This document shows, in pieces, positions 14,264 through 33,685 of a stretch of 41,254 nt of DNA (position 1 is its first letter; every line of letters starts with the position of its first letter). Made by a program: the position numbers and the translations under genes. Location of the stretch: IMG/VR virus record IMGVR_UViG_3300010048_000020, positions 1-41,254 of that record; one strand, 5' to 3'. Source of the stretch: a virus. Lineage: Duplodnaviria; Caudoviricetes. The notes under the pieces were generated by a model. That model was given only the letters and a program-made list of their open reading frames with translations. It searched no databases and was not told the origin of the DNA.

Positions 14264-14276
14264 ATGTGGAGGTCAT

Positions 14277-15176
14277 ATGTATCTCGGACATAAGTTGATG
14301 GTCCCAAATGATGGGAACTACTTTGGCCGTGATGAGTTTATTATCACCAATAAAGAAGGAATTATACGCGTAATATCTAACATCTGCAGACATCGGCAAG
14401 CCAAGATGTTTGATGGCTGCGGGACGGCGGACCGTCTAATGTGTCCTGTCCACAAGTGGACGTACGGACTGGATGGTAAGATGATAGGAGCGCCAAACTT
14501 CCCACTGGAATGCAAGCTGGATCTTATGCCGTTCAACTTTGGGACTTGGAATGGTCTACTGTTTGACCGTCCGGTAGACCTCCATGAATTAGACGGTCTC
14601 TTTGATTTTACAGACTATGAGTTTGATCACCATGAAACCCACTTCTGTCCCTACGACTGGAAGATCTTTGTGGAAGTGTCTATGGATTGCTATCATGTCC
14701 GACCTTACCACAGAGGTCTTGGAAGTTACGTTACAGACCAGGTTAGATGGGTGTGGGGGAAGAACTGTAGCGCTCAGATTGTGGGCCACAAATCACTGGA
14801 TAACCCTGGATCTCCAATCTATGAGGAATGGTTTAGAGAACTTAAGAAGCTTCCCCCCATCCCATGGGGTGCAATCTGGGGGAACATATATCCTAACGCC
14901 TTTATTGAGCATTATCCCTACACTATAATGATTTCCTACCTTACACCACGACCAGATGGTGTAGATTTTACAATTGACTATTTCTATGATAAGCAGGTAG
15001 ATTGGCTGTACAAGCAGACTCAACGTGATGCGTTTATGGAGACGGTGATGGAGGATGACCAGATAGCCATGCGTCTGCAAGCAGGCAGAAGGTTTAATAC
15101 TCCCTTGGGTCCAACACATCCTGAATTGGAGTGTGGCATAGACCACTTTTACGCGTGGCTGAACAAAAACAGCTAG
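14277..15176 (+). CDS. Rieske non-heme iron oxygenase, putrescine 2-hydroxylase-like (299 aa)
   Basis: Rieske CRH...CPVH; mononuclear Fe site D.YHV.PYH and distal EDD; GHKLMVP, PGSPIYEEW, GAIW...YPN..IE.YP and GP..P.LE.G..HF..W blocks recall the betaproteobacterial family. RBS GGAGG before ATG 14277. Confidence 0.85.
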   Translation: MYLGHKLMVPNDGNYFGRDEFIITNKEGIIRVISNICRHRQAKMFDGCGTADRLMCPVHKWTYGLDGKMIGAPNFPLECKLDLMPFNFGTWNGLLFDRPVDLHELDGLFDFTDYEFDHHETHFCPYDWKIFVEVSMDCYHVRPYHRGLGSYVTDQVRWVWGKNCSAQIVGHKSLDNPGSPIYEEWFRELKKLPPIPWGAIWGNIYPNAFIEHYPYTIMISYLTPRPDGVDFTIDYFYDKQVDWLYKQTQRDAFMETVMEDDQIAMRLQAGRRFNTPLGPTHPELECGIDHFYAWLNKNS

Positions 15177-15194
15177 TATCGCAGGTGGCGGGAG

Positions 15195-15203
15195 TGTTAT
15201 AAT
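15195..15203 (+). promoter_or_regulatory. Extended -10 promoter
   Basis: TGTTATAAT upstream of the small early-gene cluster. Confidence 0.55.
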
Positions 15204-15254
15204 AAAGTCTGTGGTAGCGGCATGGGGCGGCTACCCAGACTGAAGGAAAGTAAA

Positions 15255-15503
15255 ATGATTATCCTCGAGATTTCCAGCATGGCTGTCGGTGAAGTGTCTG
15301 ACAACTCCGTAGTTGACACTTTGGAAGGTCCGTTTCAATGTGTACTGGTTGATAAATTTCCTGGCAATGAAATGGTAGTATCTCAGGGTTGGTTCCGTGA
15401 CAACAATGTGTACTTCTTCACTCCTCCCACGGCGGGACAATCTGGCATTTGGTCGGTAGCATTCGACGTTGAGCGTGCTGACATTTACACTTGCGAGCAA
15501 TAA
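15255..15503 (+). CDS. Hypothetical protein
   Basis: RBS AAGGA before ATG 15255. Confidence 0.6.
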   Translation: MIILEISSMAVGEVSDNSVVDTLEGPFQCVLVDKFPGNEMVVSQGWFRDNNVYFFTPPTAGQSGIWSVAFDVERADIYTCEQ

Positions 15504-15505
15504 TC

Positions 15506-15808
15506 ATGCAAAAGTTCATCCATGACCCCCGCGTAACGTGGCGCAACGCTCACAGTGGTGAAGTCAAAAAACTGTTCGGGCTGCGGCCGGAGGACAAATG
15601 GCCGGACGCTGGCCTGCCCGCCCGTGACATCCAGGGCATCACCTGCTGGGTAGATCCCATTAGTGTGAACCATGGGAGCCGTCGCAAGTTCCACCGTGCG
15701 ATGGCAGCGTGTCCGGACTGCACAGCAATCATGTCCATTGGCCGCTTGCATCAGCACAAGTGCAAGACACATCGAGTCCAGAATTATTTGGAGTTGCAGT
15801 CCAAGTAA
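15506..15808 (+). CDS. Hypothetical protein with C-terminal Zn-finger-like motif
   Basis: CPDC-x9-HQHKC; starts 2 nt after the upstream stop. Confidence 0.65.
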   Translation: MQKFIHDPRVTWRNAHSGEVKKLFGLRPEDKWPDAGLPARDIQGITCWVDPISVNHGSRRKFHRAMAACPDCTAIMSIGRLHQHKCKTHRVQNYLELQSK

Positions 15809-15864
15809 CCAGATGGCATAATTGGGGTTGGTAGGTGCAACGCCTATCAAGCCCCTTATGGTTT

Positions 15865-15904
15865 TCCCCCCGGTCAAGCTTCCCCGAGCCCCGGGGGACT
15901 TTTT
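15865..15904 (+). terminator. Terminator-like hairpin
   Basis: CCCCCGG...CCGGGGG followed by ACTTTTT. Confidence 0.4.
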
Positions 15905-15921
15905 CAGAATAAGTGATAATC

Positions 15922-16218
15922 ATGGAACTCATGTTTGAAGTAGCTGGCGGGATCATCCTTGCAAGTATCGTACCGTATATCCTAGCCACAATCGTGGCAG
16001 CTCTCCAAGAACTCAATGCTGTTTTTCATGGTCTGTGGCTGGCGCTCAAAAGCCTGCTCGCCATGGGCGCAGTATTCCTTGTCGCTGGATTCTTGTATGG
16101 AATTGTAGGATTCATTCCAAAGGATGATCTTAAGCTTGACGCTATGGTGCTTATCGGGTTTGTATTCATTGCAGCAATCTTGTACACCAATCACAAATGG
16201 GGACAAAAGAAATGTTAA
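15922..16218 (+). CDS. Membrane protein with about 3 TM helices (holin candidate)
   Basis: Three hydrophobic stretches and a basic C-terminus (HKWGQKKC). Confidence 0.6.
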   Translation: MELMFEVAGGIILASIVPYILATIVAALQELNAVFHGLWLALKSLLAMGAVFLVAGFLYGIVGFIPKDDLKLDAMVLIGFVFIAAILYTNHKWGQKKC

Positions 16219-16391
16219 GAATCTTGCTGGTCTTACTGTCGGCGATGTCGTGGTATCTGTTGGGGTATGATGCTGGTCCCGGTCGCCACCTGTCTGATAA
16301 TTCGTGGTGGCTCGTGTTCTTTTGTGCAGTGGTCTCGTTCGTGGGAGCGTGCTGCTATGTCAAGGAGAATAAGTGTAATGTACAATCGTAA
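16212..16391 (+). CDS. Small 2-TM membrane protein
   Basis: MLRILLVLLSAMSWYLLG and WWLVFFCAVVSFVGAC hydrophobic segments. Confidence 0.5.
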   Translation: MLRILLVLLSAMSWYLLGYDAGPGRHLSDNSWWLVFFCAVVSFVGACCYVKENKCNVQS

Positions 16392-16662
16392 TGGGACGCC
16401 GGTCCGCCACATCCAAGGGGGACGTGAAATTCGTTGCTATCAGGGCTATTGGTATGTTCGTCTGTCCGCCAAGGAGCTGGAAGACTATCCTGGCGTGCAT
16501 TGGTCAGGATATGTCCTGGTCCACAAGTGGAAGTGGTGGGTCAAGTATGGCGAGTGGTTTGGTCAGCACGAAGCGCGCTACCGCTATCTGGACGGTGATA
16601 CCAATAACATCCGGATTACAAACATAGCAGTATTTGAGGTTGGAACGGGGGCATGGCTATGA
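16378..16662 (+). CDS. Degenerate HNH-endonuclease-like protein
   Basis: GYVLVHK....GEW...YRYLDGDTNNIRITNI resembles HNH_3 but lacks the catalytic His. Confidence 0.55.
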   Translation: MYNRNGTPVRHIQGGREIRCYQGYWYVRLSAKELEDYPGVHWSGYVLVHKWKWWVKYGEWFGQHEARYRYLDGDTNNIRITNIAVFEVGTGAWL

Positions 16663-16940
16663 GCGTTGTCGTCATTATCGCTGGACTAGCCACTGGCGCG
16701 CGTACTGCGTGGGATGGACAGTACGTGCGCGGTTGGGATCCTCACACAAAGGAAGGCACGTTGAAGCTTTGGCCGACAAAGGAACTCAAACGTGCCAAGA
16801 AATTCAAGGATATAGCGGAAGTCTTTGCGGAGTGGAAGACTGTCAGCGATAGACAGCCTGTCCGCCACGATGGCAAGCCCAATCGCCCCCTGACAGCTAT
16901 GAACATCAGCATTGAAGGTGATCATGACCAAAACGCATGA
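16653..16940 (+). CDS. Hypothetical protein
   Basis: Overlapping operon organisation; P.R.DGKPNRPLTA motif seen in phage proteins. Confidence 0.7.
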   Translation: MAMSVVVIIAGLATGARTAWDGQYVRGWDPHTKEGTLKLWPTKELKRAKKFKDIAEVFAEWKTVSDRQPVRHDGKPNRPLTAMNISIEGDHDQNA

Positions 16941-17151
16941 AATTGTAAAAGTACAGATGCCTGTGGAGTCCAGTGAAGAGACTCCTAAGGCGCTGGTGTA
17001 CACGGAAGGCAAGAAATTCATGGACTTCTTGACCATCGATAACAAGCTCAAGAAAAAGATGGGCACTGACCTGAAGGTGTATTTCTATGCGGACATTGAG
17101 GCTGGCGGTGAAGTCACGCTACACGGACGTGCGCCGTGGCAGAGCTGGTGA
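16924..17151 (+). CDS. Hypothetical protein
   Basis: IVKVQ.P...ALVY...K.YFYA...APWQ.W pattern; RBS GAAGGTG. Confidence 0.65.
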   Translation: MTKTHEIVKVQMPVESSEETPKALVYTEGKKFMDFLTIDNKLKKKMGTDLKVYFYADIEAGGEVTLHGRAPWQSW

Positions 17152-17164
17152 GGAAGCGCCATTG

Positions 17165-17383
17165 GTGACACGCGACAAAGCGCTGCGCGACTTGCTGCGT
17201 CCTATCCGCTATGAGTTTCACAATAGTGATAGCAGCAAGCGCAACATCGTAGTGAAGCGACATCAGCTGGTGCGCGCGGCCTACCCGTTCATGAACGAGG
17301 AGGAACAAGCGCAAGCTGACACGTGGTTTAAACAGGAACAACATAAGGAGCTTTGGGATGCGAACCGACATGATGCTGATTAG
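17165..17383 (+). CDS. Hypothetical protein (start uncertain)
   Basis: GAGG RBS upstream of TTG/GTG; fills the operon gap. Confidence 0.45.
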   Translation: MTRDKALRDLLRPIRYEFHNSDSSKRNIVVKRHQLVRAAYPFMNEEEQAQADTWFKQEQHKELWDANRHDAD

Positions 17384-17552
17384 CAAGCTGCTGGAAGACG
17401 TGCTGCCTCCGGGTGCGTACTTCGTCCTCGTGGTGGGTGAGGAGCAGCAAAACCCTGACGATGACAACCTTGGGTTTGCGACTGACCTCGCGCCCAATGA
17501 TGCTATCAAAATGCTGGATGAAGCGTCTGCTTCCATGAAATCAGCGACGTAA
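17358..17552 (+). CDS. Hypothetical protein
   Basis: AAGGAG RBS upstream; acidic 64 aa protein. Confidence 0.55.
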   Translation: MRTDMMLISKLLEDVLPPGAYFVLVVGEEQQNPDDDNLGFATDLAPNDAIKMLDEASASMKSAT

Positions 17553-17558
17553 TACCGC

Positions 17559-17587
17559 TTGCATTTTCCATGGGGATACCTTACTAT
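17559..17587 (+). promoter_or_regulatory. Sigma70 promoter
   Basis: TTGCAT-N17-TACTAT; the -10 is flanked by an imperfect inverted repeat (CCATGGGGATACC / GGTATTCCCCAATGG). Confidence 0.6.
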
Positions 17588-17616
17588 TCATAGGGTATTC
17601 CCCAATGGAGGTTATA

Positions 17617-17985
17617 ATGAAGCTGGTTCTTTCCCAAGGTGGCGTGGAACACAAGGTTCTGCAATACGCCATGCCAATCAAAGGTCGTGACCTGCCGTTG
17701 AAGATCAACGGCTTTGATGTCGAAGGTAAAGTCACCTCGGCACGCGGTCGCACCTACACTTACTTCGCATACGCTGGCGGTGAGTTCTACGTCCAAGGTG
17801 AACTTGGCGAACAACCGTGCGATCTCCATGTGCCTGATGGTTTTGAGCCCCGCGCCCACGCTGGCCGCGCAGCTCAATACGAAGCATTGAAGGAGAAGCG
17901 TGCGGCTGCGCGTGCCGCCACTGGCGAAGCGCCCAAGAAGCGCGGTAGGAAGTCCAAGGCGGGCACCGAGCAGCCTGCCGCATAG
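17617..17985 (+). CDS. Hypothetical protein with basic C-terminal tail; paralog of 11070..11459
   Basis: RBS GGAGG; KING.D....VTS.RG.TY.YF...G..Y; APKKRGRKSK tail; GC hairpin after the stop. Confidence 0.8.
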   Translation: MKLVLSQGGVEHKVLQYAMPIKGRDLPLKINGFDVEGKVTSARGRTYTYFAYAGGEFYVQGELGEQPCDLHVPDGFEPRAHAGRAAQYEALKEKRAAARAATGEAPKKRGRKSKAGTEQPAA

Positions 17986-18059
17986 GGTAGTAAGGGGGCG
18001 GGCCTCCGTGCCCGCCAAGAGCCTGTATGACGTAGCCAGTAACCCGTAAGGAGATTGAC

Positions 18060-18443
18060 ATGTTAACGTCTAAGAACGATCCCCTCTCTAACGACAAGAT
18101 TGTGTCTATCCTGGATGAGAAGGATGGTGGGGATCTCATTGTAGACCTGATCACTACAGCTGGACAAATCAGTGACTCCCATCGACAGCAGAAGGAAATC
18201 AAAGCTACGCTGGCAGATGCCTTGAAAACAGGCAGTCATCCTCCGCTAAGTGATTTGCTTATGATGGTTCAGCTGGAGCAACATCTTACCATGCTCTTAG
18301 ACGCCCTCAGTATCTTATACGTAAGACTAAAAGAGGTGCGTGATAGTGGACAACTTCACACAGACGCTGTTGCCGCTAGTCGATCAATGGTTCAAGAAGC
18401 AGATTCAGCGGCTGGATCTGCAGAACCAAGCGGCGGCAATTGA
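18060..18443 (+). CDS. Hypothetical helical protein
   Basis: RBS TAAGGAG before ATG 18060. Confidence 0.65.
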   Translation: MLTSKNDPLSNDKIVSILDEKDGGDLIVDLITTAGQISDSHRQQKEIKATLADALKTGSHPPLSDLLMMVQLEQHLTMLLDALSILYVRLKEVRDSGQLHTDAVAASRSMVQEADSAAGSAEPSGGN

Positions 18444-18735
18444 AGAGGAAGAACGTGAACTCAAGAAGCAGTTTTCAGCGATAATGAAGGAACAACGCGT
18501 TCTGAAATTTGAAGCGACAGACTGCATCGTAGAACTGAAGGAGGGAGAACCCGCACCGACAGTGCGGAGCTGGGAGCTGTTCTATAAATATATCATGGAC
18601 AATAACGCCTTTGAACTACTACAGAAACGCGTGAGTCCTGTAGCTGTAAGGGAACACTGGGAAGCAGGGGAACACATCCCCGGCGTGGACAAATTCCCAG
18701 TAGATAAAATATCCGTCCAAAGGATCTCCCGTTGA
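18340..18735 (+). CDS. Conserved phage replication-module protein
   Basis: P.V..W..FY.YI....AF.LLQKR.S..A.RE....G..IPGV motif, typically found next to SSB genes. Confidence 0.75.
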   Translation: MIVDNFTQTLLPLVDQWFKKQIQRLDLQNQAAAIEEEERELKKQFSAIMKEQRVLKFEATDCIVELKEGEPAPTVRSWELFYKYIMDNNAFELLQKRVSPVAVREHWEAGEHIPGVDKFPVDKISVQRISR

Positions 18736-18774
18736 CCGAAGGGAGCACAAATCGGTCGTACTTAGGACTAGATC

Positions 18775-19512
18775 ATGAGTACTCAGGTAATTCCGTGGAA
18801 GGAACGCATGGCCGCGCTGGCAAAACAGACGGAAGATGCGGAAAAGCCCACTGGAAATTTCATCACCTTCCGCGCAGGACAGATGTTGTTTAACGATGCA
18901 CCAGTCCCCGGCAACAAATTGACTGGAGTCTGTATAGATTACATCTTTGAAAATGCGTATTTCCCAGATAAGTTCAATCCGGCAAAACCCGCTTCGCCAA
19001 TATGCTACGCGTTCGGCCGGAAGGATAGTGAACTCAAGCCACACGCTGAGTGTGAAGAGCCTCAAAACACCGAGTGTGACGGTTGTATTCGCAATGCGTG
19101 GGGCAGCGATCCTGATGGTGGGCGCGGCAAGGCGTGTAAGAATACGCGGCGTCTGGCAATCCTACACCAGGATAGTCTTCATTCCGAAAAGGAGATTCTT
19201 GAAGCGGCTGTGGCTTTCTGCAAGATCCCTGTCACGTCTGTCCGTAACTGGAGCACGTTTGCCAATCAATGCTCGACAGTCCTTAAGGTCCCTCCGCTGG
19301 CAGTTATCACCGAAATCTCCGTTGTACCCCATCCGAAAAACCAGTTTGAGGTCCTCTTCAAGGGGTCAGGGGTTATCACGGACGATGAAATTCTGGCTGC
19401 ACTAGTCGCCAAGCAGGAGCTCGTAGCTAAGAATATTATGGTCCCATATCCTAAGAATCAAAAGGAAGGGGAGCCTGTTGTACCAAAGAAGGACGGGAAA
19501 AAATACTCATGA
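18775..19512 (+). CDS. Putative ssDNA-binding protein with Zn-binding Cys cluster
   Basis: P.CYA...C..C..N.WGS....GKACKN.RRLA motif in a polA-type replication module. Confidence 0.65.
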   Translation: MSTQVIPWKERMAALAKQTEDAEKPTGNFITFRAGQMLFNDAPVPGNKLTGVCIDYIFENAYFPDKFNPAKPASPICYAFGRKDSELKPHAECEEPQNTECDGCIRNAWGSDPDGGRGKACKNTRRLAILHQDSLHSEKEILEAAVAFCKIPVTSVRNWSTFANQCSTVLKVPPLAVITEISVVPHPKNQFEVLFKGSGVITDDEILAALVAKQELVAKNIMVPYPKNQKEGEPVVPKKDGKKYS

Positions 19513-19652
19513 GGCAATAGGTGTAAACACCTATGTTGCTGCGGCGCAAACCGAGCAGGTTGAGCCCCCAAGAGGTAAAATGACCTGTATAGTTGTAACA
19601 GTTTGTTAGCAGTAACGCAGGGTCTAAGGGAGTCGTGGGGGCTCCCTTTTTC
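19513..19652 (+). promoter_or_regulatory. Structured leader with mutually exclusive terminator/antiterminator
   Basis: Terminator AAGGGAGTC/GGCTCCCTT plus a T run (19626-19651); GAGCCCCCA (19562-19570) is the exact complement of TGGGGGCTC (19636-19644). Confidence 0.5.
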
Positions 19653-19680
19653 TATCCCCCACACTTGTGAGGTAATAATC

Positions 19681-20046
19681 ATGAAGAAGCTCATCCTTGC
19701 AGTGGCAGCAGCTCTGGTCGCTTCGTCGGCATTCGCAGTAACGGGTGTCGGTGGCGTGGCAACGTCGTCCTCGGGCGCAGGTTCGTTCGCCGCTACCGGC
19801 GTGATCGGTAACGGCGCTTCGATCCAAGGCACCACGAACGCTACCGAAGGCACGGCGACGGTGGTCGCGGTCGCGGGTCAAGGCAACAATCCCACGAGTG
19901 GTGCGGCTGGCGTTCACACGACGGCAACGACGACGACCACGGGCCTTTCGGTCGGCGCAACGCAGGGCAACGGCTTCGGTCTGACGGGCGGCGCAGCAGG
20001 CTCGCTCTCCAACGCAGCCGGTGGTGCAGGCTTCCTGCACTTCTAA
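19681..20046 (+). CDS. Secreted Gly/Ala/Thr-rich protein 1
   Basis: RBS GAGGT; signal peptide MKKLILAVAAALVASSAFA; ends in Phe. Confidence 0.8.
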   Translation: MKKLILAVAAALVASSAFAVTGVGGVATSSSGAGSFAATGVIGNGASIQGTTNATEGTATVVAVAGQGNNPTSGAAGVHTTATTTTTGLSVGATQGNGFGLTGGAAGSLSNAAGGAGFLHF

Positions 20047-20062
20047 TCGTAGTCTGATGCGA

Positions 20063-20093
20063 CCCTCCTGTTCATGGCAGGAGGGTTTCCTTT
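20063..20093 (+). terminator. Terminator-like hairpin
   Basis: ACCCTCCTG-N7-CAGGAGGGT then TTCCTTT. Confidence 0.5.
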
Positions 20094-20106
20094 CAAGGAG
20101 CATCTG

Positions 20107-20415
20107 ATGAAGATTAGACTGATCGTTGCATGCGCAACTATGATGGTTGCGGGCGCAACATTCGGCCAAAGCACCAGCGTAACGACTTCGGGAAACATGA
20201 TTTCCGGAATTGTGCAGCAGACGCTGGCAGGCAAAACGGTCACGGTCACCATCACCAATGGAGTCCAGACCGCAGGCTCTGTGCCGAATAGTGTGCCTCA
20301 AGGTGTAGATTTGGGAAGTATGTCCGCTGGATTGTCTATCGGCGCGATTCAAGGAGCAGGGTTTGGGAGTACCGGGGGCGTTTCTGGTTCTGCCGTAAGC
20401 GCCCTGAAGTTCTAG
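20107..20415 (+). CDS. Secreted Gly/Ser/Thr-rich protein 2
   Basis: RBS AAGGAG; signal peptide MKIRLIVACATMMVAGATFG; C-terminus similar to protein 1. Confidence 0.75.
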   Translation: MKIRLIVACATMMVAGATFGQSTSVTTSGNMISGIVQQTLAGKTVTVTITNGVQTAGSVPNSVPQGVDLGSMSAGLSIGAIQGAGFGSTGGVSGSAVSALKF

Positions 20416-20444
20416 CAGGACACCGTTGATGGGTGATGTTTCAG

Positions 20445-20468
20445 GCCGCGCCTTCGGGCGCGGTTTTT
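20445..20468 (+). terminator. Intrinsic terminator
   Basis: GCCGCGCC-TTCG-GGCGCGGT plus TTTT (cUUCGg loop). Confidence 0.75.
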
Positions 20469-20484
20469 CACAAATGGGGATAAC

Positions 20485-21264
20485 ATGAAAAAGATTCTGA
20501 TGGCCACAGCCCTGGCGATGGTTGCGGGCGCAACCTTCGGCCAGACAGCAAACTCCGGAGCGGGTGCAACGTCCAACTCCGGCGCAGTAGGCACGGCGAC
20601 TGCCGTGGGTGGAGGTATGTCTTCCTCCAGCATGTCCAGCACGATCGGCGGCAGTGCTGCCTCCGCGCGTGGGGGCGCAGGGGGAAACTCCACGGCGGCA
20701 GGCGGAACTTCAGCCGTGACCGTGAATTTTACATCAGGGAGCGGAGCGTCCGACCCCTCCAGCGGGACGGGGGCCGGACAGACTGCGGCAGCGCAAATCC
20801 CCGGGGACCCGACAACTCATATAAAAGAATCCATCCAGACTGTTGGGAACCCGGGAGCTGTGAGTTACGGTGTCAGTTTTAGTCAGTACAACTGTGCGAA
20901 CACAGCATCCGTAGGCGCTGGCTTCTTGGGTGGAGTATTCCAGTTCGGTGGAGGCGTGGAATCAAACCCTTGCAACGCCAGAGCAAACGCTTCCGCACTT
21001 TTTACTCTGGCGCAGGGGATGGCTTCATCGAATGCGGAAATGTCGGCGCGGCTGTACAGAGCCGCCGTGCTGCTGATTGGCCACTCAACCAAGGCGACGG
21101 AAGACGCGTTGGCAGAGGCTGGGGTTTCTGACTTTCTTCCCTCCACGCCGCCTGCGCCAGCTCCGCAACCAGCGGACGTAGGAGCAGTCCCGGGCGTGAA
21201 AGCTTACGCTGTCGCTCAGACTCCCGGCAAGGAAGCTCAGCTGGTCGATGTCGTCAAGAAGTAG
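20485..21264 (+). CDS. Secreted Gly/Ser/Ala-rich protein 3 with disulfide beta-hairpin domain
   Basis: Signal peptide MKKILMATALAMVAGATFG; C-ANTASVGAGFLGGVFQFGGGVESNP-C hairpin. Confidence 0.8.
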   Translation: MKKILMATALAMVAGATFGQTANSGAGATSNSGAVGTATAVGGGMSSSSMSSTIGGSAASARGGAGGNSTAAGGTSAVTVNFTSGSGASDPSSGTGAGQTAAAQIPGDPTTHIKESIQTVGNPGAVSYGVSFSQYNCANTASVGAGFLGGVFQFGGGVESNPCNARANASALFTLAQGMASSNAEMSARLYRAAVLLIGHSTKATEDALAEAGVSDFLPSTPPAPAPQPADVGAVPGVKAYAVAQTPGKEAQLVDVVKK

Positions 21265-21271
21265 TGAGAGT

Positions 21272-21303
21272 TGCCAGTATGCGCGGGGAAGCGCATACTG
21301 GCA
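21272..21303. repeat. Perfect 13-bp hairpin after the secreted cassette
   Basis: TGCCAGTATGCGC-GGGGAA-GCGCATACTGGCA. Confidence 0.75.
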
Positions 21304-21444
21304 GTTAGGGTGTTTTGGCGGGGGTCACGGGTCGTCCCCACGGTCGGCAAGGCGCGGGTCGTAGCAACAGGGGCTCCCCGTGACGCTGATTGGCCTGTGG
21401 CCTCCACCAAAACAATCCTAACCTGAACCGTGGGGGTTCTAGTA

Positions 21445-21696
21445 ATGAGTAAAGAGGCTGTAGTTCATGCTGCACGTCTTTGGTCTTTGCAAATCGCCAG
21501 AATAGAAACATACAAGGCGGGCAAAACCAGTCCAGTCATTCTAAACATGATGCTCCAAAAAGAACGTATCCTCTACGATAACTTCATCGCCCTGTTGGAG
21601 GGAGTATGTCAACTTGCATCTTTACAGGTTGCCGAGTCGCAATCTGTCCAGAAGGGAAAGAGCCGCGCTGCTTCAACGCGGATGCTCATCAAATAA
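21445..21696 (+). CDS. Hypothetical protein
   Basis: ORF in operon orientation; no motif recognised. Confidence 0.45.
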   Translation: MSKEAVVHAARLWSLQIARIETYKAGKTSPVILNMMLQKERILYDNFIALLEGVCQLASLQVAESQSVQKGKSRAASTRMLIK

Positions 21697-22067
21697 ACGA
21701 TCATACGTACATTTTCAACGTCAACCCTAAGTCCGGCATGTCTATGAAGGAGTGCTGGTTGGCGTGGAAGAGGATAGATTATTTTATCCTGCTCAAGCCG
21801 AGTTGGTATTTCTGGCTACAATCCACGCCGAATATCCTGGTCGTAGAAATGGAGTGTGTCTATGAGCTCACCCAAAAGGCGCGGGAAAACGAAAAGGACT
21901 TCGAAGATTCCCCAGACATTGACTGGTGGGCGCTTCTATCTCCACTTGGATTCGAATGGAGTGATGGCTCTCAGAGTTACATTTACACAGGAGGTGACAA
22001 GCAAGAAAAACCAGATGTCCACCCATCAGCAGAGCAGTTCGTAGACACAGACCCTGAACCATTCTAG
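21606..22067 (+). CDS. Hypothetical protein
   Basis: RBS GGAGG before ATG 21606; Cys-rich N-terminus. Confidence 0.6.
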   Translation: MSTCIFTGCRVAICPEGKEPRCFNADAHQINDHTYIFNVNPKSGMSMKECWLAWKRIDYFILLKPSWYFWLQSTPNILVVEMECVYELTQKARENEKDFEDSPDIDWWALLSPLGFEWSDGSQSYIYTGGDKQEKPDVHPSAEQFVDTDPEPF

Positions 22068-22076
22068 GAGCATGCA

Positions 22077-23525: not shown

Positions 23526-23631
23526 TGCTAGAAACGCCCCTCTGGCCGTCCAGAACGCTCTGAGAGCTCCTGGCGGCTAGGGGCTGGTATGTTTGTATGG
23601 GCCTGCTACGGCGGGCCGCTAAGGAGCCCCT

Positions 23632-24359: not shown

Positions 24360-24366
24360 GTTGTCC

Positions 24367-24395: not shown

Positions 24396-24443
24396 GCTTT
24401 TGTTCTCGTAGCCTGTAGCGTGTACTCACCCAATGGAGCCATA

Positions 24444-26288: not shown

Positions 26289-26880
26289 CGGACTAGGCGC
26301 GGAGCCCGGAGCTGCGGCCAGCCGGGGCTCGCGCCTGCACAAGAATGCGGAGGACTATATCAAAACTACGGACAACGTAGTGATGCTAGAAAAGGATATG
26401 ATTCCGCTAGGCCCAGAGCTTGAGCGTATGAAGCAGACGGGATGGAAGAGTGAAGAAGTCTGGCTCGCCGATAAAGGTTGGTTCCCGGTGTTTATGGAAG
26501 AGGAAGCTTGGATTAAAGCTGTTGTGGATCTGCATTATCTTGACGGAGATATCCTTGATATACGTGATCTTAAGTCAGGCCGTCGATACCCGGAACACGC
26601 TGACCAGTTACAAATCTACGCGTTGATGGGGATGAAGAGATTTCCTGACATTAAGAGGGTTGATGTTAGTGCGTGGTACATTGACGAAGGAGGTGCAAGT
26701 GGACATCAAGCGTCTTACATGCCTGCCATGTTCGACTATTATGCTGCGGGATGGAACGAACTGGCACTACGGATGTTTGCCGATCAGACCTTTACCGCTA
26801 CTCCATCTAAGTCAGTATGTAGATGGTGTCCCTTCCGGGCTAGCAAGGGAGGTCCTTGCGAATTGGGAGACTTATGGTGA
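26188..26880 (+). CDS. PD-(D/E)XK exonuclease (Cas4/RecB-like)
   Basis: WSYSSL..Y..CP, G..LH, VVD...DLKSG, QL..YA, C.WCPF...C. Confidence 0.85.
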   Translation: MDTTGTILRPIRWSYSSLSTYKECPLQYKLDYIDGLGAEPGAAASRGSRLHKNAEDYIKTTDNVVMLEKDMIPLGPELERMKQTGWKSEEVWLADKGWFPVFMEEEAWIKAVVDLHYLDGDILDIRDLKSGRRYPEHADQLQIYALMGMKRFPDIKRVDVSAWYIDEGGASGHQASYMPAMFDYYAAGWNELALRMFADQTFTATPSKSVCRWCPFRASKGGPCELGDLW

Positions 26881-27092
26881 GCTGCCCGAGATGCGGAAGT
26901 AATGACCTCTGGGATGACAATCTATGGTGGGGCTGTAACCACTGTGGATGGGCGTGCGGCCCAGACGGTCCAACGATGGTCCTTGCAAGGGACATTCCGG
27001 GATTGGCTAGGAATCTGAAAGATATTCCTACTCCACCTAACTTCATTTATCTGGTGCCAGATAATGGTGATGGAGATCAAGATCGAAAATGA
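26874..27092 (+). CDS. Small Zn-ribbon protein
   Basis: CPRCGS...CNHCGW; RBS GGAG. Confidence 0.55.
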   Translation: MVSCPRCGSNDLWDDNLWWGCNHCGWACGPDGPTMVLARDIPGLARNLKDIPTPPNFIYLVPDNGDGDQDRK

Positions 27093-27372
27093 TGTCAGAG
27101 CTCTGGCGCAGGATGAGCTAGGCATCACATCGATTAAGCTGAACCTAACAGGGAATCGTGGCTGGCCAGACGTCATCTTTATGTTTGAGGGTCACGTTTT
27201 CTTTATGGAATTCAAACGTCCTGACGAAATGCCTAGGGAGCTACAAGTCTTCAGGATTAAATGGTTGCTGGCGAATAAATTCCCTGTGCTAGTATGTGAT
27301 AACGTGTACCAAGGTATGGAGGCATTAAAGAGATGGAAACAGTCAATTCTTGGCAACGATTCGCTGAAGTAA
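27064..27372 (+). CDS. VRR-NUC domain nuclease
   Basis: E..IE, GWPD...F.EFKRP....R.LQ motif. Confidence 0.85.
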   Translation: MVMEIKIENDVRALAQDELGITSIKLNLTGNRGWPDVIFMFEGHVFFMEFKRPDEMPRELQVFRIKWLLANKFPVLVCDNVYQGMEALKRWKQSILGNDSLK

Positions 27373-28169
27373 CGATAGCAACAAATGATTTAGATCCAGT
27401 GTATCAGGTGGCGCGCGGCGCACGGTGTATCTACGGTGATGACTGGGCCGCACGCTTCTGCATGCACTTCCTACTGTCGTATCACATGGGAGGGTCTGCC
27501 AAAGCGGCGACGGAAGAATGGTCATGGGATCGTTACAAGTATGAGTTTGATACCATGTGGCGTGGCACGGAGCGCAGACACTATAGAGGTGCGCAGGGCC
27601 GCAACGCGTTGGGACGCCTAGCCGCAGCCTCAGAAAGTCCTCTGCACGCTTTCCGCGCCATGGTAGCGCCCAACTATACCGCGCTGCGCAAGATGTTCTC
27701 AGGAGGACGTTTTGAGCGCTGTGGTTTTGGAGATTATTTCATATGGAAAACACTGGATTTTCAGACGAGGGTGTTCGACAACCAGATAGCACTGAGCTTG
27801 GAGGAAGCCAACGTCGGCTTGCCCACGGATCCTCGCCAAGCAGCGCTTGGCCTTTTCCCACAGGATCCATTGATTCGATGTCTGGAAATAGTAACGGACC
27901 ATATATCCAACTTCCACTTACCATTCGGCGGGCCCGGTTACTGTGGGATCCAAGAAGCGGAGACGGTACTCTGTATGTTGAAGGGAGCTTTCATTACACG
28001 GAAACACCAGATAGGTGATGACATCGAGGACAAGAGGAAAGCGCTGGATGGCTGGCCTGACCTCCAAAGACTGATGCCGTTCAGCTGCATCGGCCAGTAC
28101 AAGGTGGGAACATTACATGAAGTGGAACCCGCACTCGTTTCAAATAGTGGGGGTGCAATGGATGCTTGA
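27333..28169 (+). CDS. Amine/amino acid:DNA transferase (aGPT-Pplase clade 2 / ADDT family)
   Basis: DLDPVY, RG.ERRH.RG, GFG....WK..D, CG.QEAET.LC..K and G.DI motifs; hypermodification neighbourhood. Confidence 0.85.
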   Translation: METVNSWQRFAEVTIATNDLDPVYQVARGARCIYGDDWAARFCMHFLLSYHMGGSAKAATEEWSWDRYKYEFDTMWRGTERRHYRGAQGRNALGRLAAASESPLHAFRAMVAPNYTALRKMFSGGRFERCGFGDYFIWKTLDFQTRVFDNQIALSLEEANVGLPTDPRQAALGLFPQDPLIRCLEIVTDHISNFHLPFGGPGYCGIQEAETVLCMLKGAFITRKHQIGDDIEDKRKALDGWPDLQRLMPFSCIGQYKVGTLHEVEPALVSNSGGAMDA

Positions 28170-29493
28170 GCATGCGGGGTCTGGGATTATCCTGGACCCC
28201 GGCATGGGTAAGACTTCCATCGCGCTCGCCGTGTTGGATGTGCTGTTGTCTGTGAGGAAAGTCACTAAGGTATTAGTCATTGCTCCTCTCCGTGTATGTC
28301 GTCTAGTCTGGCCGTTGGAGAGGGATAAGTGGGATGATTTCAACCACATGGATATCTGTAATCTTTGTGAGCTGGATGAGAAGGAACGCATCCGGTTGTT
28401 GAAGGAAAACCATGCCATATATCTTATCAACCCGGAGTCCCTTAAGAATCTACTATCGCCTAAACTCTGGGCCGGACAAGGGTTTGACTGTCTCGTTGTG
28501 GACGAGAGCACGAAGTTCAAAGACACCCAAACCCAACGATTCAAAGCTCTTAAACCTTTCCTACCTCAATTTAAGAGGCGCTATATTCTTACAGGTACGC
28601 CTTCCCCTAACGGGTATGAGGATTTGTTTGGACAGATGTACATTGTGGATTTGGGGAAGACGCTGGGACGTTTTATCACTCACTATCGGGCGCAATATTT
28701 CCGACAGGATCCATTCAACACCTATGGACTAGAGCTGATGCCGGGGGCGGCAAAGGAAATCCAGGAGAAGTTGAAAGAAAGCCTTATCTCCTTCAACGAG
28801 AAGGACTTCATCGAACTGCCGGAGCTGATACATGACAAAATTTATATTGACCTTCCCCCCACTGCAAGGAAGCACTATATTGATATGCAGCGGAGATTCT
28901 TTACACTTCTGGAGTCAGGTGAGCCTGTCTTTGCTCCGAACGCCGCAGTTGTCGGAGGGAAATGTCGTCAAATCGCTAATGGTGGCCTTTACATTCAGGA
29001 AGAAAACAACCGTCGTGGCTTTAGTGCGCTTCACTTTGAAAAGCTCAGAGCATTGGGGGATCTGGTTGAACAGTTGCAAGGTCAACCGATGCTTACCGCC
29101 TATGAGTTTCAGTTTGATGCGGAAGCCATTGAAAAGGCGATTCCCAGAACTATCAATATGACTGCAACCAAGGAACTGGAGGCAGTGAATGACGCGTTTA
29201 ATAGAGGCCTTATTCCTCACCTCATTGGTCACCCTGCTAGTATGGGCCATGGTCTCAATCTTCAAGGTCACTGTAATCATATCTGTATGTACGGGATTAA
29301 CTGGAATTACGAATGGTTTAAGCAGTTCCTTAAGCGCGTGTATAGACAAGGTAATTCTGCTGAACACGTCACTCTCCACTGGATCATTGCTAGAAACACT
29401 TTGGATGAAAGAGTAATGGATGTCCTATCCAGCAAGGGTGCCAGTGATGATGAAATAAAGAGAGCACTTGTTCCTAGTAAGGAGGCAGCATGA
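28117..29493 (+). CDS. SNF2-family helicase
   Basis: DPGMGKT, VIAPLRV, VVDES, LTGTP, GHGLNLQ, R.YRQG. Confidence 0.92.
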   Translation: MKWNPHSFQIVGVQWMLEHAGSGIILDPGMGKTSIALAVLDVLLSVRKVTKVLVIAPLRVCRLVWPLERDKWDDFNHMDICNLCELDEKERIRLLKENHAIYLINPESLKNLLSPKLWAGQGFDCLVVDESTKFKDTQTQRFKALKPFLPQFKRRYILTGTPSPNGYEDLFGQMYIVDLGKTLGRFITHYRAQYFRQDPFNTYGLELMPGAAKEIQEKLKESLISFNEKDFIELPELIHDKIYIDLPPTARKHYIDMQRRFFTLLESGEPVFAPNAAVVGGKCRQIANGGLYIQEENNRRGFSALHFEKLRALGDLVEQLQGQPMLTAYEFQFDAEAIEKAIPRTINMTATKELEAVNDAFNRGLIPHLIGHPASMGHGLNLQGHCNHICMYGINWNYEWFKQFLKRVYRQGNSAEHVTLHWIIARNTLDERVMDVLSSKGASDDEIKRALVPSKEAA

Positions 29494-30068
29494 ATGCTAT
29501 AATAACAGGGCCAGTAAGGGTAAAGCTCCACGGCACATGTGGAGCTGGCAAAACAACGATAGCTAGACAATTTTTCAAAGAAGCTAAAAATGTCGAACCA
29601 ATCCAAAGCAATTACAATCGTAAACGTATTGAGGCGTACCGCCTCGACATGGGGTGGAATAAGAGTCTGTACGTGTTGGGGTCGTATGAATCAGTATGTG
29701 GAGGACTGGACACATGCGATGCCGACACCTGTGTGGACTTGGTGTCCCGGTATGGTAATCTGGATGGGCACGTACTATACGAATCAATGATAGCCTCAGG
29801 CTTCTATGGGCGGATGGGAAAGGTGAGCGAACAATGGGGGCCAAACCACATTTTCGCTTTTCTAACCACGCCCATTGAAGTCTGTATCCAAAGGACAGAA
29901 CAGCGGCGTAGGGAACGTGGGGATCTCCGGCCGCTTGACCCTGTGAATGTCATAGATAAGGACGCTGCCATGCAGAAGCTTATCAAGCGACTGCAAGGTC
30001 CACTCAACCGTGAAGTCCGTTTTGTATCGAGCTATGAAGATGTCAGATATCTCTTCACCGAACCTTGA
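29490..30068 (+). CDS. P-loop kinase, putative 5-hmdU DNA kinase
   Basis: GTCGAGKTT, V.G.Y...CGG.D, V.YE, FL.TP.E.C..R...RR; adjacent to aGPT-Pplase1 and dUMP hydroxymethylase. Confidence 0.82.
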   Translation: MNAIITGPVRVKLHGTCGAGKTTIARQFFKEAKNVEPIQSNYNRKRIEAYRLDMGWNKSLYVLGSYESVCGGLDTCDADTCVDLVSRYGNLDGHVLYESMIASGFYGRMGKVSEQWGPNHIFAFLTTPIEVCIQRTEQRRRERGDLRPLDPVNVIDKDAAMQKLIKRLQGPLNREVRFVSSYEDVRYLFTEP

Positions 30069-30897
30069 ACTCTTCGACCTGTTCAAGTATTTTGTAGCTG
30101 AGCGTTGGCGTATCCACATTGCAAAGGATGAAGAGAAGTTGCCCGCTCCGTGGACAACTGATCCTATCCCGCAGAAGTATCGGTTCTGCAACGTTATGCG
30201 GGAACACGACAAGGTGACTAAATGGATAGCCGCCAACTGGCGGAATCCAAACCGCATCAACCCCATGTTGCCGTTCAACATGGCCGTGGCGCGGCTGATT
30301 AACTACCCTCCCACCCTGGAAGAAATAGGGTACAGTTACTTTTGGACGCCGGAGCAATCTGGGCGCATGCGTAACATCATCAAAGACCGTCAGAACAGAG
30401 GTGACAAATGCTTCTCCAGCGCCTACATGGTTACTGGCACAGAATCAAAGGGGATGGAAAAGGTAGACTTCGTATTGCTAATCCTGAACCGGTTGTGGGA
30501 AGTCTATCCCCGTATGAAGTTCAACTCATTAGAGGAGTTCGCAAACTCCGTCCAGGTAAAAGGGATCAGTTCATTTTTGTCTGGCCAGATAGTAGCGGAC
30601 GTGAAGTATACACCATGGTTAAAGCAAGCCCCCGACTGGTGGACGTGGTCCACTCCTGGGCCGGGAAGCATTCGTGGATTGAACCGGTTATGGAACCTGC
30701 CGATAGAGCGACAGATGAATGGTGGTGAATTCCAAGATAGGATGCAGATAGTCGGGGCAGTAGGTCTGGGGTTAGCTATCCACTTCCAGGACCTGCAGAA
30801 TTGTCTCTGTGAGTTTGACAAGTATTGTCGTGTGAAGTTTGGGCAGGGACAACCGAAACAACTTTACGTCCCCACTGGACCAGGAGTATTTCCATGA
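30040..30897 (+). CDS. aGPT-Pplase clade 1 protein (HhH-glycosylase-fold, hmdU-DNA modification associated); start uncertain
   Basis: F..ER..I.......PWT.DP....YRFCNV.RE.D, AR..N, F.SAY, PGPG..RGL, QN.LCEFDKY motifs. Confidence 0.88.
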   Translation: MSDISSPNLELFDLFKYFVAERWRIHIAKDEEKLPAPWTTDPIPQKYRFCNVMREHDKVTKWIAANWRNPNRINPMLPFNMAVARLINYPPTLEEIGYSYFWTPEQSGRMRNIIKDRQNRGDKCFSSAYMVTGTESKGMEKVDFVLLILNRLWEVYPRMKFNSLEEFANSVQVKGISSFLSGQIVADVKYTPWLKQAPDWWTWSTPGPGSIRGLNRLWNLPIERQMNGGEFQDRMQIVGAVGLGLAIHFQDLQNCLCEFDKYCRVKFGQGQPKQLYVPTGPGVFP

Positions 30898-31877
30898 GCA
30901 TACTCAGCCTCACTGCAAGGAACGTCAACGATGCGTACGAGACTGCACTATGGGCGTTCCACACCTTACCTGACCTCCATACGGAAGATTCCCGTGGAGG
31001 GCCAGTTTTCAGGTATCCTACGCCCGTCTGCATGGAATATGACAAGCCTAACGAGCGGGTATTATTCAACGCTCACCGCGACGCTAACCCGTTTTTCCAT
31101 TACATGGAGGGCGTTTGGATGCTTGCGGGGGAAGATGAAATACAGTGGCTCAGCCAGTTTAACGATCAAATCCAGGGCTATTCTGATGACGGAAGAACGC
31201 TCCATGGGGCATACGGCAACAGATGGTCCTTCCATTTCAACCATTGCCAGCTCATTGATAATATTAGTCATCTTCGGAAAAATCCGAAGTCGCGCCGGGT
31301 GGTACTCGCAATGTACGATCCTGACATTGACGCGCTCATCGAGTACTCTGGGAAAGATGTCCCCTGCAACACCCATATCTATTTTGCGGTTCGTGACGGG
31401 CGTCTAGACATGACAGTCATGGCCCGCAGCAATGACCTGATCTGGGGCGCGACGGGGGCCAACGCAGTTCACATGTCTATGCTCCATGAATTCGTCGCCA
31501 TCCAAACCGGTCTGCATCTAGGTCGGATGTATCAGTTTTCTAATGACTACCACATTTACGCTGAAAGGTATCACCCTGACGAGCTCATCAAACACCTGGA
31601 CGGGTTCCAGCCGTACGAATGGATGGACACCCCACCTAGACGTCTGTGCGAGTACTACCCACAGCCGATGGATTTTCTGGAAGAGTGCAAGGCGTTCATC
31701 GAAGGAAAGTGGTCCAGCCTTCATGACCCTATGTGGCAGGAACTGGCGTGCCCGATGAAGAACGCGTGGGATTGTTTCATAGCAGGGGAGATGGATGGGG
31801 CGCTGTCCATCTGCCAGTACATTCAGGCGGAGGACTGGCGCAAGGGTTGCACTGACTGGTTAAAGAGGAGGATGTAA
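30894..31877 (+). CDS. dUMP hydroxymethylase (thymidylate synthase family)
   Basis: SR.G, RDANPFFH..E..WMLAG, GAYG.RW, KDVPCN catalytic Cys, RSND.IWGA.GAN with Asn (dUMP-type); ATG overlaps the upstream stop. Confidence 0.88.
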   Translation: MSILSLTARNVNDAYETALWAFHTLPDLHTEDSRGGPVFRYPTPVCMEYDKPNERVLFNAHRDANPFFHYMEGVWMLAGEDEIQWLSQFNDQIQGYSDDGRTLHGAYGNRWSFHFNHCQLIDNISHLRKNPKSRRVVLAMYDPDIDALIEYSGKDVPCNTHIYFAVRDGRLDMTVMARSNDLIWGATGANAVHMSMLHEFVAIQTGLHLGRMYQFSNDYHIYAERYHPDELIKHLDGFQPYEWMDTPPRRLCEYYPQPMDFLEECKAFIEGKWSSLHDPMWQELACPMKNAWDCFIAGEMDGALSICQYIQAEDWRKGCTDWLKRRM

Positions 31878-32140
31878 TGCAGAGGCTCACCACTGTCTGT
31901 CCCCATTGTGGGGAGACACATACAGGGGTGAGCTGCTTCGCTCACCCTCACGCGTTGCCCGTCGATGGCGACTGCCACATATGCATCAAGTGTGGAGGTT
32001 GGGGCATAATGGAGAAGGGAAAGCTGCGGCTCCCCACGTTGGTTGAATTGTTAAGGATGTCAGTAGACAATGAGGTCATGCGCACGCAGCGCGCGTGGCG
32101 CGCGATGGACAAACGGAGGAAAGAAAATGAAGGATGTTGA
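31877..32140 (+). CDS. Small Zn-finger protein
   Basis: CPHCG...P..GD..IC.KCG; RBS AGGAGG. Confidence 0.65.
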   Translation: MQRLTTVCPHCGETHTGVSCFAHPHALPVDGDCHICIKCGGWGIMEKGKLRLPTLVELLRMSVDNEVMRTQRAWRAMDKRRKENEGC

Positions 32141-32708
32141 GATTCCACTGCCGGGTTTTCCAGTTGACCCGTTCATGATTTACGAATGCAACACGGTCAA
32201 GCGTTATCACACCATCTACACTACGCGCGCGCAGAACACAGGAGAGCACTGTGCCAACATGATGGGTCTACTATTCTGCACTGGCTACGAGTTCAGCCGT
32301 GAGCTAGTCTTTGCAATCATGACCCATGACTACCCAGAAATGTGGACAGGCGACATGCCCGCGCACGCCAAGATGTATCACTCCTCCATCAAGCGCGGCT
32401 TTGACCAGATGGAGGAAGAGTGGTATATGTCCCATGGAATAGCACTGCCGGTGCTGAGCGCGGAAGACCAGTGGATGCTAAAATGGTTGGACGTAGCGGA
32501 GCTTTGTGCATTTTGTCAAACGGAACTTAAACGTGGCAATCAAGATGTTCTGCCGTGTTACACTAGGGGTAGTGTCTGGTTAGCAAGTCTCCTAGATGAT
32601 CGTTCCATGCTTAAGCTTCCTGACTACGTAAGGGATCGCATTGACGATATGAGTGACAGGATTCTAGGAGAAGGTGATGTCTGCGAATCAGAGACAAGTA
32701 GGGGGTAA
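32127..32708 (+). CDS. HD-domain deoxynucleotide phosphohydrolase (YfbR-like)
   Basis: VKRYHT, Q...EH, HD..E..TGD.P...K, LK..D..E; RBS GGAGG. Confidence 0.85.
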   Translation: MKDVEIPLPGFPVDPFMIYECNTVKRYHTIYTTRAQNTGEHCANMMGLLFCTGYEFSRELVFAIMTHDYPEMWTGDMPAHAKMYHSSIKRGFDQMEEEWYMSHGIALPVLSAEDQWMLKWLDVAELCAFCQTELKRGNQDVLPCYTRGSVWLASLLDDRSMLKLPDYVRDRIDDMSDRILGEGDVCESETSRG

Positions 32709-33267
32709 TCACTATCAGTCCAACCTGCAACATTGGGACTATGTCGTTGCCAATAATCTAGATTACTTCCAAGCCCAAATCACAAAATACGTTACGCGTT
32801 GGAAGAGAAAAGGAGGCATCCGTGATCTTGAGAAAGCACAACACTTCCTGGAGAAGTATATCGAAGTGGCCCGTTCAGACCCGGAGTTTTGCATGGCAGA
32901 GAGCATGCGAGCGGAGGAGGATGGAAATCTATGTCCTCCTGGGGACAGTGAGTGGCCTAATCGTGTGCGCTTTGATAATGTACATGGCGAGGTGACTAAT
33001 GCAAATCAGCAAGAACGGAATTACGGTGGAAGTACCGATTGGGCTCCCGACCAATGGGAACGTGAAAGACGGCTATCAGGTCTTTCTACAGGAGGAGACG
33101 GACAAGCTAATCCGGCAGCATGTGGAGGCCCTGACCTACTTGCCAAAGTATATATGGGAGGAGTGGAACCGTGTCCTCCATCCGTTCGCAGGACTGGGGG
33201 TGACGGCCCAAGTCTTGGACAAGGGTACAGGCCGGCAACTGACCCACCGCATGTGGGAAAGGGATAA
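32677..33267 (+). CDS. DUF3310 protein (T7 gp1.7-like nucleotide kinase family) with C-terminal run-on
   Basis: AN..QVGG.HY...Q.WD, KYV.RW..K.G..DL.KA.H.L motif. Confidence 0.8.
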   Translation: MSANQRQVGGNHYQSNLQHWDYVVANNLDYFQAQITKYVTRWKRKGGIRDLEKAQHFLEKYIEVARSDPEFCMAESMRAEEDGNLCPPGDSEWPNRVRFDNVHGEVTNANQQERNYGGSTDWAPDQWERERRLSGLSTGGDGQANPAACGGPDLLAKVYMGGVEPCPPSVRRTGGDGPSLGQGYRPATDPPHVGKG

Positions 33268-33685
33268 GGTCTGCTACGACTACCTCAAGGAGCAGGGCTA
33301 TAATGTTCAGCTCGTCGATGATAGTTACAAGGCACTCAACCGGGAGGTCTTGGATGGCTTCGATGCAGTTATTATGGACCCTACCGCTGGAACCATTAAG
33401 ACACCGGGTATGGTTCAGTTTTGGGACGCTGCCGCCGCAGCTCGCGTTCCACTCGTCTGGGTTACGGACAGTGCGTGCAGTAAGATCTGGCTGCACAAGG
33501 ATCATTATAAACCGGAATTCGGACGGCACGTAGAGGACGCAGAAGACTACCTGCGCGCCTACAACGACTTCCTACGTGGGAGGGGATACACCATAGTGGA
33601 GGCGCTGAGGGAGCCGTCAGTGGTGTACTTCGTTGCTGTCAGGGATTTGGGGGTGAAGCCCTTTGACAGAATCGTCCGTCTTTGA
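32999..33685 (+). CDS. Putative class I SAM-dependent methyltransferase-fold protein
   Basis: VLHPFAGLG (motif I), WERD (motif II acidic), DS, FDAVIMDP (strand 4); RBS GAGGTG; last gene of the modification operon. Confidence 0.7.
   Translation: MQISKNGITVEVPIGLPTNGNVKDGYQVFLQEETDKLIRQHVEALTYLPKYIWEEWNRVLHPFAGLGVTAQVLDKGTGRQLTHRMWERDKVCYDYLKEQGYNVQLVDDSYKALNREVLDGFDAVIMDPTAGTIKTPGMVQFWDAAAAARVPLVWVTDSACSKIWLHKDHYKPEFGRHVEDAEDYLRAYNDFLRGRGYTIVEALREPSVVYFVAVRDLGVKPFDRIVRL

Follow-up and report, generated by a model that had tools for sequence, protein, structure and literature searches.

The viral record examined here (IMGVR_UViG_3300010048_000020; 41,254 bases, estimated to be 91% complete, and called the window below, meaning the whole stretch of DNA analysed) encodes a deoxyuridine monophosphate (dUMP) hydroxymethylase, a P-loop 5-hydroxymethyl-deoxyuridine (5-hmdU) kinase and an aGPT-Pplase of clade 2 (Pplase2/ADDT, a predicted amine or amino acid:DNA transferase), and as judged by gene content and catalytic residues it is a member of the 5-HMUDK/Pplase2 hypermodification kind. 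A protein of S-adenosylmethionine (SAM)-dependent methyltransferase fold and a compact Rieske-type oxygenase are encoded as well. The window phage almost certainly carries hypermodified thymine, and the base is very probably a thymidine derivative that has not been described. The fuller reading, a thymine bearing a hydroxylated, methylated putrescine arm, is offered tentatively, as a proposal short of probable. What emerges is a clade of transferases marked by a pocket of its own, by a SAM-fold partner dedicated to it and by an oxygenase domain that recurs. Should the fuller reading hold, with it would come a new DNA base, a new enzyme class in DNA modification and a stand-alone Rieske catalytic domain that needs an electron source.

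The replication arm of the window ends in abutting genes, in the order transferase, SNF2 helicase, P-loop kinase, HMUDK_hel protein, dUMP hydroxymethylase, a small open reading frame (ORF), HD hydrolase, DUF3310 protein and SAM-fold protein; the Rieske gene adjoins the divergent primase. A first-pass annotation of this DNA had named six of these genes, and Pfam matches, motifs and a structure model bear out all six, each on the plus strand. One of its labels has to be changed: the gene called aGPT-Pplase1 is there, and by its profile match it belongs to HMUDK_hel, a Pfam family whose present name is 5-hmdU kinase helical domain. The closest phage matches of the hydroxymethylase are about 40% identical, to M6/YuA-type enzymes. 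We propose that the hydroxymethylase and the HD hydrolase would put 5-hydroxymethyluracil into phage DNA, where the P-loop kinase would phosphorylate it; the transferase would displace the phosphate via its cysteine, attaching a host diamine (most likely putrescine or 2-hydroxyputrescine), and the SAM-fold enzyme would methylate the free amine. The oxygenase, fed with electrons by a host ferredoxin and reductase, would add an optional hydroxyl, either by raising the free 2-hydroxyputrescine pool or by acting on the DNA-bound arm. Relatives without it would make the non-hydroxylated base or draw on host 2-hydroxyputrescine. For M6, ViI and phiW-14, the hydroxymethylase, the kinase and the cysteine-dependent displacement of phosphate are reported as established (PMC8989533, PMC13458397).

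The Pfam match of the window transferase barely passes the cut-off; a profile built from this protein and 12 relatives finds the transferase structures of YuA (E 3e-21) and PaMx11 (E 1e-17), the structure entries matched being 25qc and 8z2m. Its catalytic and metal residues D21, E210, T211 and C214 are kept, corresponding to D25/E222/T223/C226, and catalysis is reported to be by C226 with D25/E222/T223 (PMC13458397). In the same report, donor choice is assigned to G227/H230/D238/D243 for diamines and to K248/Y257 for glycine, and two substitutions switch the donor. The pocket of the window transferase reads T14/M215/G218/H225/D229-D230. As the aligner places a gap at H225, this residue was equated with D238 by its distance from the conserved Asp that follows. 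The carboxylate-binding residues of the glycine enzymes, K248 and Y257, are Met and His in the window, and an extra Asp, invariant in the 13 closest rows, stands beside the D243 equivalent; a lysine lost and an aspartate gained favour a cationic donor. Of the 62 rows aligned, 24 have the M/G/H/D signature (at the G227, H230, D238 and D243 positions), and 15 of these are viral loci. In a tree of the 62 rows (FastTree only, long branches flagged), the window falls in a 37-row clade whose sister group holds the transferases for putrescine and diaminopropane (support 94); the glycine clade stands apart. The serine transferase of ViI, gp247, is matched by the 62-transferase profile at E 0.005 over 45 positions, and its pocket is not mappable. 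On these grounds an amine rather than an amino-acid donor is favoured, which upholds one part of the earlier proposal of a polyamine nucleophile; the diamine signature that the other part would call for is not there, as detailed below. The enzyme most likely works like the diamine transferases, a diamine donor is somewhat more probable than not, and putrescine is a reasonable guess. Related podophages carry other pockets (L006, L046, L048, L052, L056 and L058-L066), among them L/G/H/G without the SAM-fold gene, A/G/Y/D with it, and V/Q/R as in Rhodoferax phage P26218; this variety suggests several more donors.

The SAM-fold protein has no match in Pfam, PHROG or NCBIfam and none in cultured phages, and its best viral matches are unnamed AdoMet methyltransferases. 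It was aligned with 17 relatives from related modification clusters, and its predicted structure (predicted local distance difference test score, pLDDT, 92.6) best matches, in the PDB, the tRNA N-methyltransferase Trm1 (E 2.8e-8, template modelling score 0.63). A Rossmann-type SAM fold, a glycine-rich motif I and an acidic end of beta-2 are all present. Spermidine synthase and TYW2 appear among the weaker fold matches of the model, so that methyl transfer, as predicted from the structure, is likely rather than established. The family occurs in 28 of the 50 transferase-bearing records searched whole, including all 15 viral records with the M/G/H/D pocket; neither phiW-14 nor the close kin with an altered pocket (L052 and L056, both L/L/G/G) gave a match. 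Since the alignment was drawn largely from the same loci that were later searched, the 15 of 15 shows presence and not independent discovery. Within the cluster, the gene occupies three different slots across relatives, which is the behaviour of a dedicated tailoring gene. The first-pass annotation had counted the SAM fold as a pathway member, and as a fixed partner of this transferase pocket it has kept that place; it probably methylates the adduct or its donor.

The Rieske protein of the window begins at an ATG preceded by GGAGGT, a start that was preferred to a longer one at 14187. It matches PF00355 (E 3.5e-13) and PF00848 (E 3.9e-14) and keeps all ligands, those of the cluster (C37/H39/C56/H59), the bridging D137 and those of the iron (H140/H145/D260). 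Its nearest relatives, about 40% identical over the whole length, are almost all betaproteobacterial (Burkholderiales orthologues), and the window protein is some 70 residues shorter and strongly diverged. NCBIfam holds no model that matches it, cultured phages give only distant Rieske matches, none covering more than 80% of the query, and a scan of viral contigs with the single protein returned no relative, the relatives being found with an alignment-based scan. The gene carries no mark of recent transfer, its GC content at third codon positions (0.50) being like that of the polymerase (0.49), and a promoter scan around it stayed at chance level (5 found, 4.0 expected). 2-Hydroxyputrescine is reported as typical of betaproteobacteria, with putrescine hydroxylases known from Bordetella and Ralstonia (PMC10385936, PMC7857480). 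Of 101 genomes sampled from the order that holds Burkholderia, 87 have just one copy of the bacterial family, which fits the betaproteobacterial range of that polyamine; the family adjoins dxs in 47 of 80 loci. Li et al. in 2016 are said to have reported that the putrescine 2-hydroxylase of Bordetella bronchiseptica and Ralstonia solanacearum is a Rieske enzyme. The dxs-ispA neighbourhood presumably agrees with the Ralstonia locus of that hydroxylase.

Relatives of this oxygenase lie inside the modification clusters themselves. A stand-alone catalytic domain of 180-191 residues, from the same family, was found in three transferase-bearing records (E 4e-24 to 5e-18), and further scans added more. 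It sits within the modification cluster in six of six contigs that give DNA context, in two slots and in four lineages 38-57% identical, and three further full-size proteins (P0116, P0117 and P0121) come without such context. In the short form the Rieske domain is gone, and the iron ligands (two His and one Asp) are intact, as is the bridging Asp; its model (pLDDT 87.4) matches the fold of the carnitine monooxygenase catalytic domain (E 6e-8). All three short-form contigs that reach the transferase show the M/G/H/D pocket of the window. A search with a positive control met the oxygenase family in none of 50 further viral records that bear HMUDK_hel, the majority of which lack this transferase in the vicinity. 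The Rieske-pathway link, which the first-pass annotation had itself called unproven, thus gains from these cluster-embedded relatives and loses from the nearest relative of the window, discussed below. On balance the window oxygenase serves the thymidine-modification pathway with a probability we place slightly above even. That the podophage group makes N-methylated, hydroxylated putrescinyl-thymines, a host putrescine hydroxylase having been turned into a DNA-tailoring oxygenase that is full-length here and a stand-alone domain without iron-sulfur cluster in four related lineages, is, as a whole, an unlikely proposal; if true, it would give DNA base synthesis its first Rieske-type oxygenase.

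Several observations weigh against a hydroxylated, methylated putrescine arm, and they concern the oxygenase, its relatives and the transferase pocket in turn. The oxygenase occurs in only three of the 50 transferase-bearing records and in two of the 16 near-complete ones, and by tblastn it is lacking from the flanks of the ten further loci (of 60) omitted from whole-record searches; such patchiness agrees with a step that is optional, or with a gene that boosts supply where the host already makes 2-hydroxyputrescine. The nearest relative (60% transferase identity, the same pocket and a SAM-fold gene) has small ORFs in the same primase-adjacent slot and no oxygenase in a record that is 51% complete. 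The cluster copies form one clade (support 100), and the tree leaves their sister relation to the window copy undecided (approximately unbiased test p 0.55, long branches). A separate Rieske domain was found in neither of the two complete genomes with the short form; lacking an electron-input domain of their own as well, the short proteins may not be oxygenases. The closest solved relatives of the window oxygenase, carnitine monooxygenase and stachydrine demethylase, dealkylate quaternary amines. That the characterised putrescine hydroxylase is a Rieske protein of the family of the window oxygenase is very probable rather than established. For phiW-14, putrescine is reported as the donor although its host also makes 2-hydroxyputrescine (PMC5977210). 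This shows that a transferase can ignore the hydroxylated diamine, so its use would take another kind of pocket; that of the window is indeed different.

The strongest competitor, unlikely in our estimate and close behind the proposed reading, keeps the new base as a methylated amine-thymine made by transferase and SAM enzyme, and takes the Rieske gene for an auxiliary metabolic gene of the kind seen in large freshwater phages, acquired from a host among the betaproteobacteria. The gene stands 12 kb off in a variable slot (the gap to the transferase, measured at 12.2 kb, is as the earlier annotation had it), it is lacking in the nearest relative, and in the tree the window copy groups with divergent copies from phages and metagenomes and not, so far as can be demonstrated, with those of the cluster. 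Full-length copies were found in 26 large-phage contigs (L008-L033), with no ADDT match in any of the 26 (control run) and no HMUDK_hel in these plus three more (0 of 29), most of these contigs being fragments and only one record at least 90% complete. They lie among ordinary auxiliary genes, as seen in the 88 of 155 nearby ORFs scanned. The earlier annotation had held that its proposal would fall if Rieske homologues occurred independently of hypermodification genes, and they do so as full-length copies in bacteria and, to the extent that these mostly fragmentary records can tell, in large phages. Against an auxiliary role stand the sizes and contents of the genomes: every other full-length viral copy found belongs to a phage of an estimated 160 kb or more, and the small phages with the oxygenase family all carry modification-cluster genes. 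Of the 81 positions conserved in bacteria, moreover, the window copy retains 48 and the large-phage majority 73, which suggests a changed job. The neighbours in L008-L033 include ribonucleotide reductase, ThyX, GTP cyclohydrolase and PTPS, a PstS-type binding protein with a phosphate porin, desaturases and superoxide dismutase. In a survey of viral polyamine enzymes, the main text contains neither 'hydroxylase' nor 'Rieske' (PMC9992855).

The pocket opens a second alternative, less probable than an auxiliary role, in which the donor is no polyamine: a Met-filled pocket would take a small or N-methylated amine, and the oxygenase would act by oxidative N-dealkylation or as a tailoring protein without redox function; the product might be, for instance, a methylaminomethyl-type base. 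Of the four diamine positions G227/H230/D238/D243, which read M215/G218/H225/D230 in the window, only D243 is kept, and Met at the G227 position is also bulky, like the Lys of G227K, which is reported to have lowered diamine activity by about 85% (PMC13458397). As its pocket fits neither the diamine nor the glycine subfamily, we file the window transferase in neither. His at the D238 position and the loss of the Rieske domain in the cluster copies are also in keeping with this alternative, as are the dealkylating solved relatives, and PaMx11 is reported to trim its glycine adduct to aminomethyl-U (PMC8989533). It has to contend, however, with a transferase clade sister to the diamine enzymes, with a pocket that Gly in place of H230, together with the additional Asp, may reopen and acidify, and with an oxygenase that aligns along its entire length with the betaproteobacterial family at about 40% identity, whereas the solved dealkylases match the family profile over positions 16-218 of 367 only. 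Nor does losing D238 exclude a diamine, as D238A alone is reported to have left substantial activity in the SH-Ab 15599 transferase (PMC13458397). Least probable is a known base, putrescinyl- or diaminopropanyl-thymine, with the SAM-fold protein acting elsewhere (methylating, e.g., residual hydroxymethyluracil or some other base): a tailoring enzyme is reported to be unnecessary for diamine transferases (PMC13458397), and the SAM-fold family also accompanies other pocket types, yet its constancy beside the window pocket, its absence from L052 and L056, and a pocket that differs from both known diamine enzymes at at least three positions make this improbable.

The virion block, of podophage type, lies on the minus strand and the replication arm on the plus strand (Pfam, PHROG). 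The closest cultured match of the capsid protein is that of a Stenotrophomonas phage (68%); the oxygenase, by contrast, points to betaproteobacteria. All four runs listed as containing the record are soil metagenomes, with no RNA run among them. Two contigs of one soil run span positions 13500-19630 (depth 8.7) and 19605-33084 (depth 7.6), overlapping by just 26 bases, in a run that is possibly the source of the record; a chimeric assembly is not supported, though not independently excluded. A GNAT acetyltransferase (phrog_4470; 40174-40611, minus strand) lies in the virion block far from the cluster, and PaMx11 tailoring uses an acetyltransferase. Three Gly/Ala/Ser-rich ORFs with signal-peptide-like starts (19603-21264, plus strand), unusual in a replication arm, have no Pfam or PHROG match. 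Two small unnamed families (L035:4767-5192 and L039:16022-16294, each with 14 relatives) recur in the cluster, each in 15 of 26 related loci, one of them with a weak match to pyrimidine-dimer glycosylase (E 0.008). In one related phage the CBASS inhibitor Acb3 (L037:7648-8649, E 3.5e-69) lies between helicase and kinase, and many phages (L286-L362) carry HMUDK_hel and hydroxymethylase with no recognisable Pplase2 within 10 kb. The genes of the cluster and the short oxygenase forms are listed in table 1.

Table 1. Modification-pathway candidates in the window and short oxygenase forms in related contigs.
Feature	Position	Strand	Basis or setting
Rieske non-heme iron oxygenase, compact, 299 aa	14277..15176	+	Pfam, ligand residues, ~40% identity to Burkholderiales orthologues
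Clade-2 aGPT-Pplase (Pplase2/ADDT), predicted amine/amino acid:DNA transferase	27333..28169	+	PF18724 E 7.6e-6, catalytic residues
SNF2-type helicase, no role in chemistry claimed	28117..29493	+	Pfam/PHROG; same order in relatives, between transferase and kinase
P-loop kinase, predicted 5-hmdU DNA kinase	29490..30068	+	Walker A GTCGAGKT; AAA_18/dNK below cut-off; conserved slot in relatives
HMUDK_hel protein (formerly aGPT-Pplase1)	30010..30897	+	PF18723 E 1.6e-36
dUMP hydroxymethylase, likely start 30894	30825..31877	+	PF00303 E 3.3e-20; PCN and RSND...AN motifs
HD-domain nucleotide hydrolase, predicted to deplete dTTP/dUTP or dTMP	32070..32708	+	PF12917 E 1e-8; PHROG dATP triphosphohydrolase-like E 2e-7
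DUF3310 protein, domain in first ~70 residues, remaining ORF overlaps next gene	32674..33267	+	PF11753; relatives match over ~65 residues
Class I SAM-dependent methyltransferase fold	32999..33685	+	Structure model, fold matches, co-occurrence
Short oxygenase form	L039:15420-15992; L038 same gene, ends 15646		Between HMUDK_hel and hydroxymethylase
Short oxygenase form	L051:2702-3277		Between helicase and kinase
Short oxygenase form	L178 from 855; L282 from 1602; L201 from ~1238		Each directly behind HMUDK_hel; from further scans

How does this system compare with those already known? The donors reported for Pplase2 are glycine, serine, putrescine and diaminopropane, and the tailoring enzymes reported are decarboxylases, radical-SAM isomerases, flavin lyases and acetyltransferases. 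In the openly accessible literature searched we found no tailoring methyltransferase or Rieske oxygenase in phage DNA modification and no hydroxyputrescinyl- or methylputrescinyl-thymine; the pocket logos and neighbourhoods in Supplementary Figs S6B and S8 of PMC13458397 may already show the clade of the window. Rhodoferax phage P26218, a cultured freshwater podophage, has a similar plan with helicase, transferase, kinase, hydroxymethylase and HD gene; its pocket is V/Q/R, however, and 30 of its 36 kb gave no match to HMUDK_hel, to the window-type SAM fold or to the oxygenase. The glycine routes of the Pseudomonas phages M6/YuA (5-NedU) and PaMx11 (5-AcNmdU) likewise run, as reported, from a hydroxymethylase (about 40% identical to that of the window) through kinase and transferase to tailoring in a modular cluster (PMC8989533). 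The window differs in lacking K248/Y257 and in its tailoring set, SAM fold plus Rieske-type oxygenase; no pyridoxal-phosphate (PLP), radical-SAM or flavin enzyme was found among the 107 of 204 listed window ORFs scanned against Pfam, in line with the earlier annotation, which had seen no PLP decarboxylase, radical SAM enzyme or flavin lyase. The best cultured-phage match of the window transferase (30%) is the diamine transferase of Acinetobacter phage SH-Ab 15599 (alpha-dapT; PMC13458397), with the same catalytic and metal residues; its G227, H230, D238 and M18 are M, G, H and T in the window, and the accessible text describes no tailoring enzyme for it, whereas the window has two candidates. 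The alpha-putrescinylthymine pathway of Delftia phage phiW-14, finally, is likewise reported to combine a kinase (gp37) with a clade-2 aGPT-Pplase (gp109; PMC8989533, PMC5977210), and gp109 belongs to the sister clade. The two transferases share the equivalents of E88, Y139 and D243 at 26% identity, with G/H/D in the pocket of phiW-14 against M/G/H in that of the window; and whereas phiW-14, at 157 kb, has no match to the SAM-fold or oxygenase family, the window is a 41-kb podophage-type genome with both.

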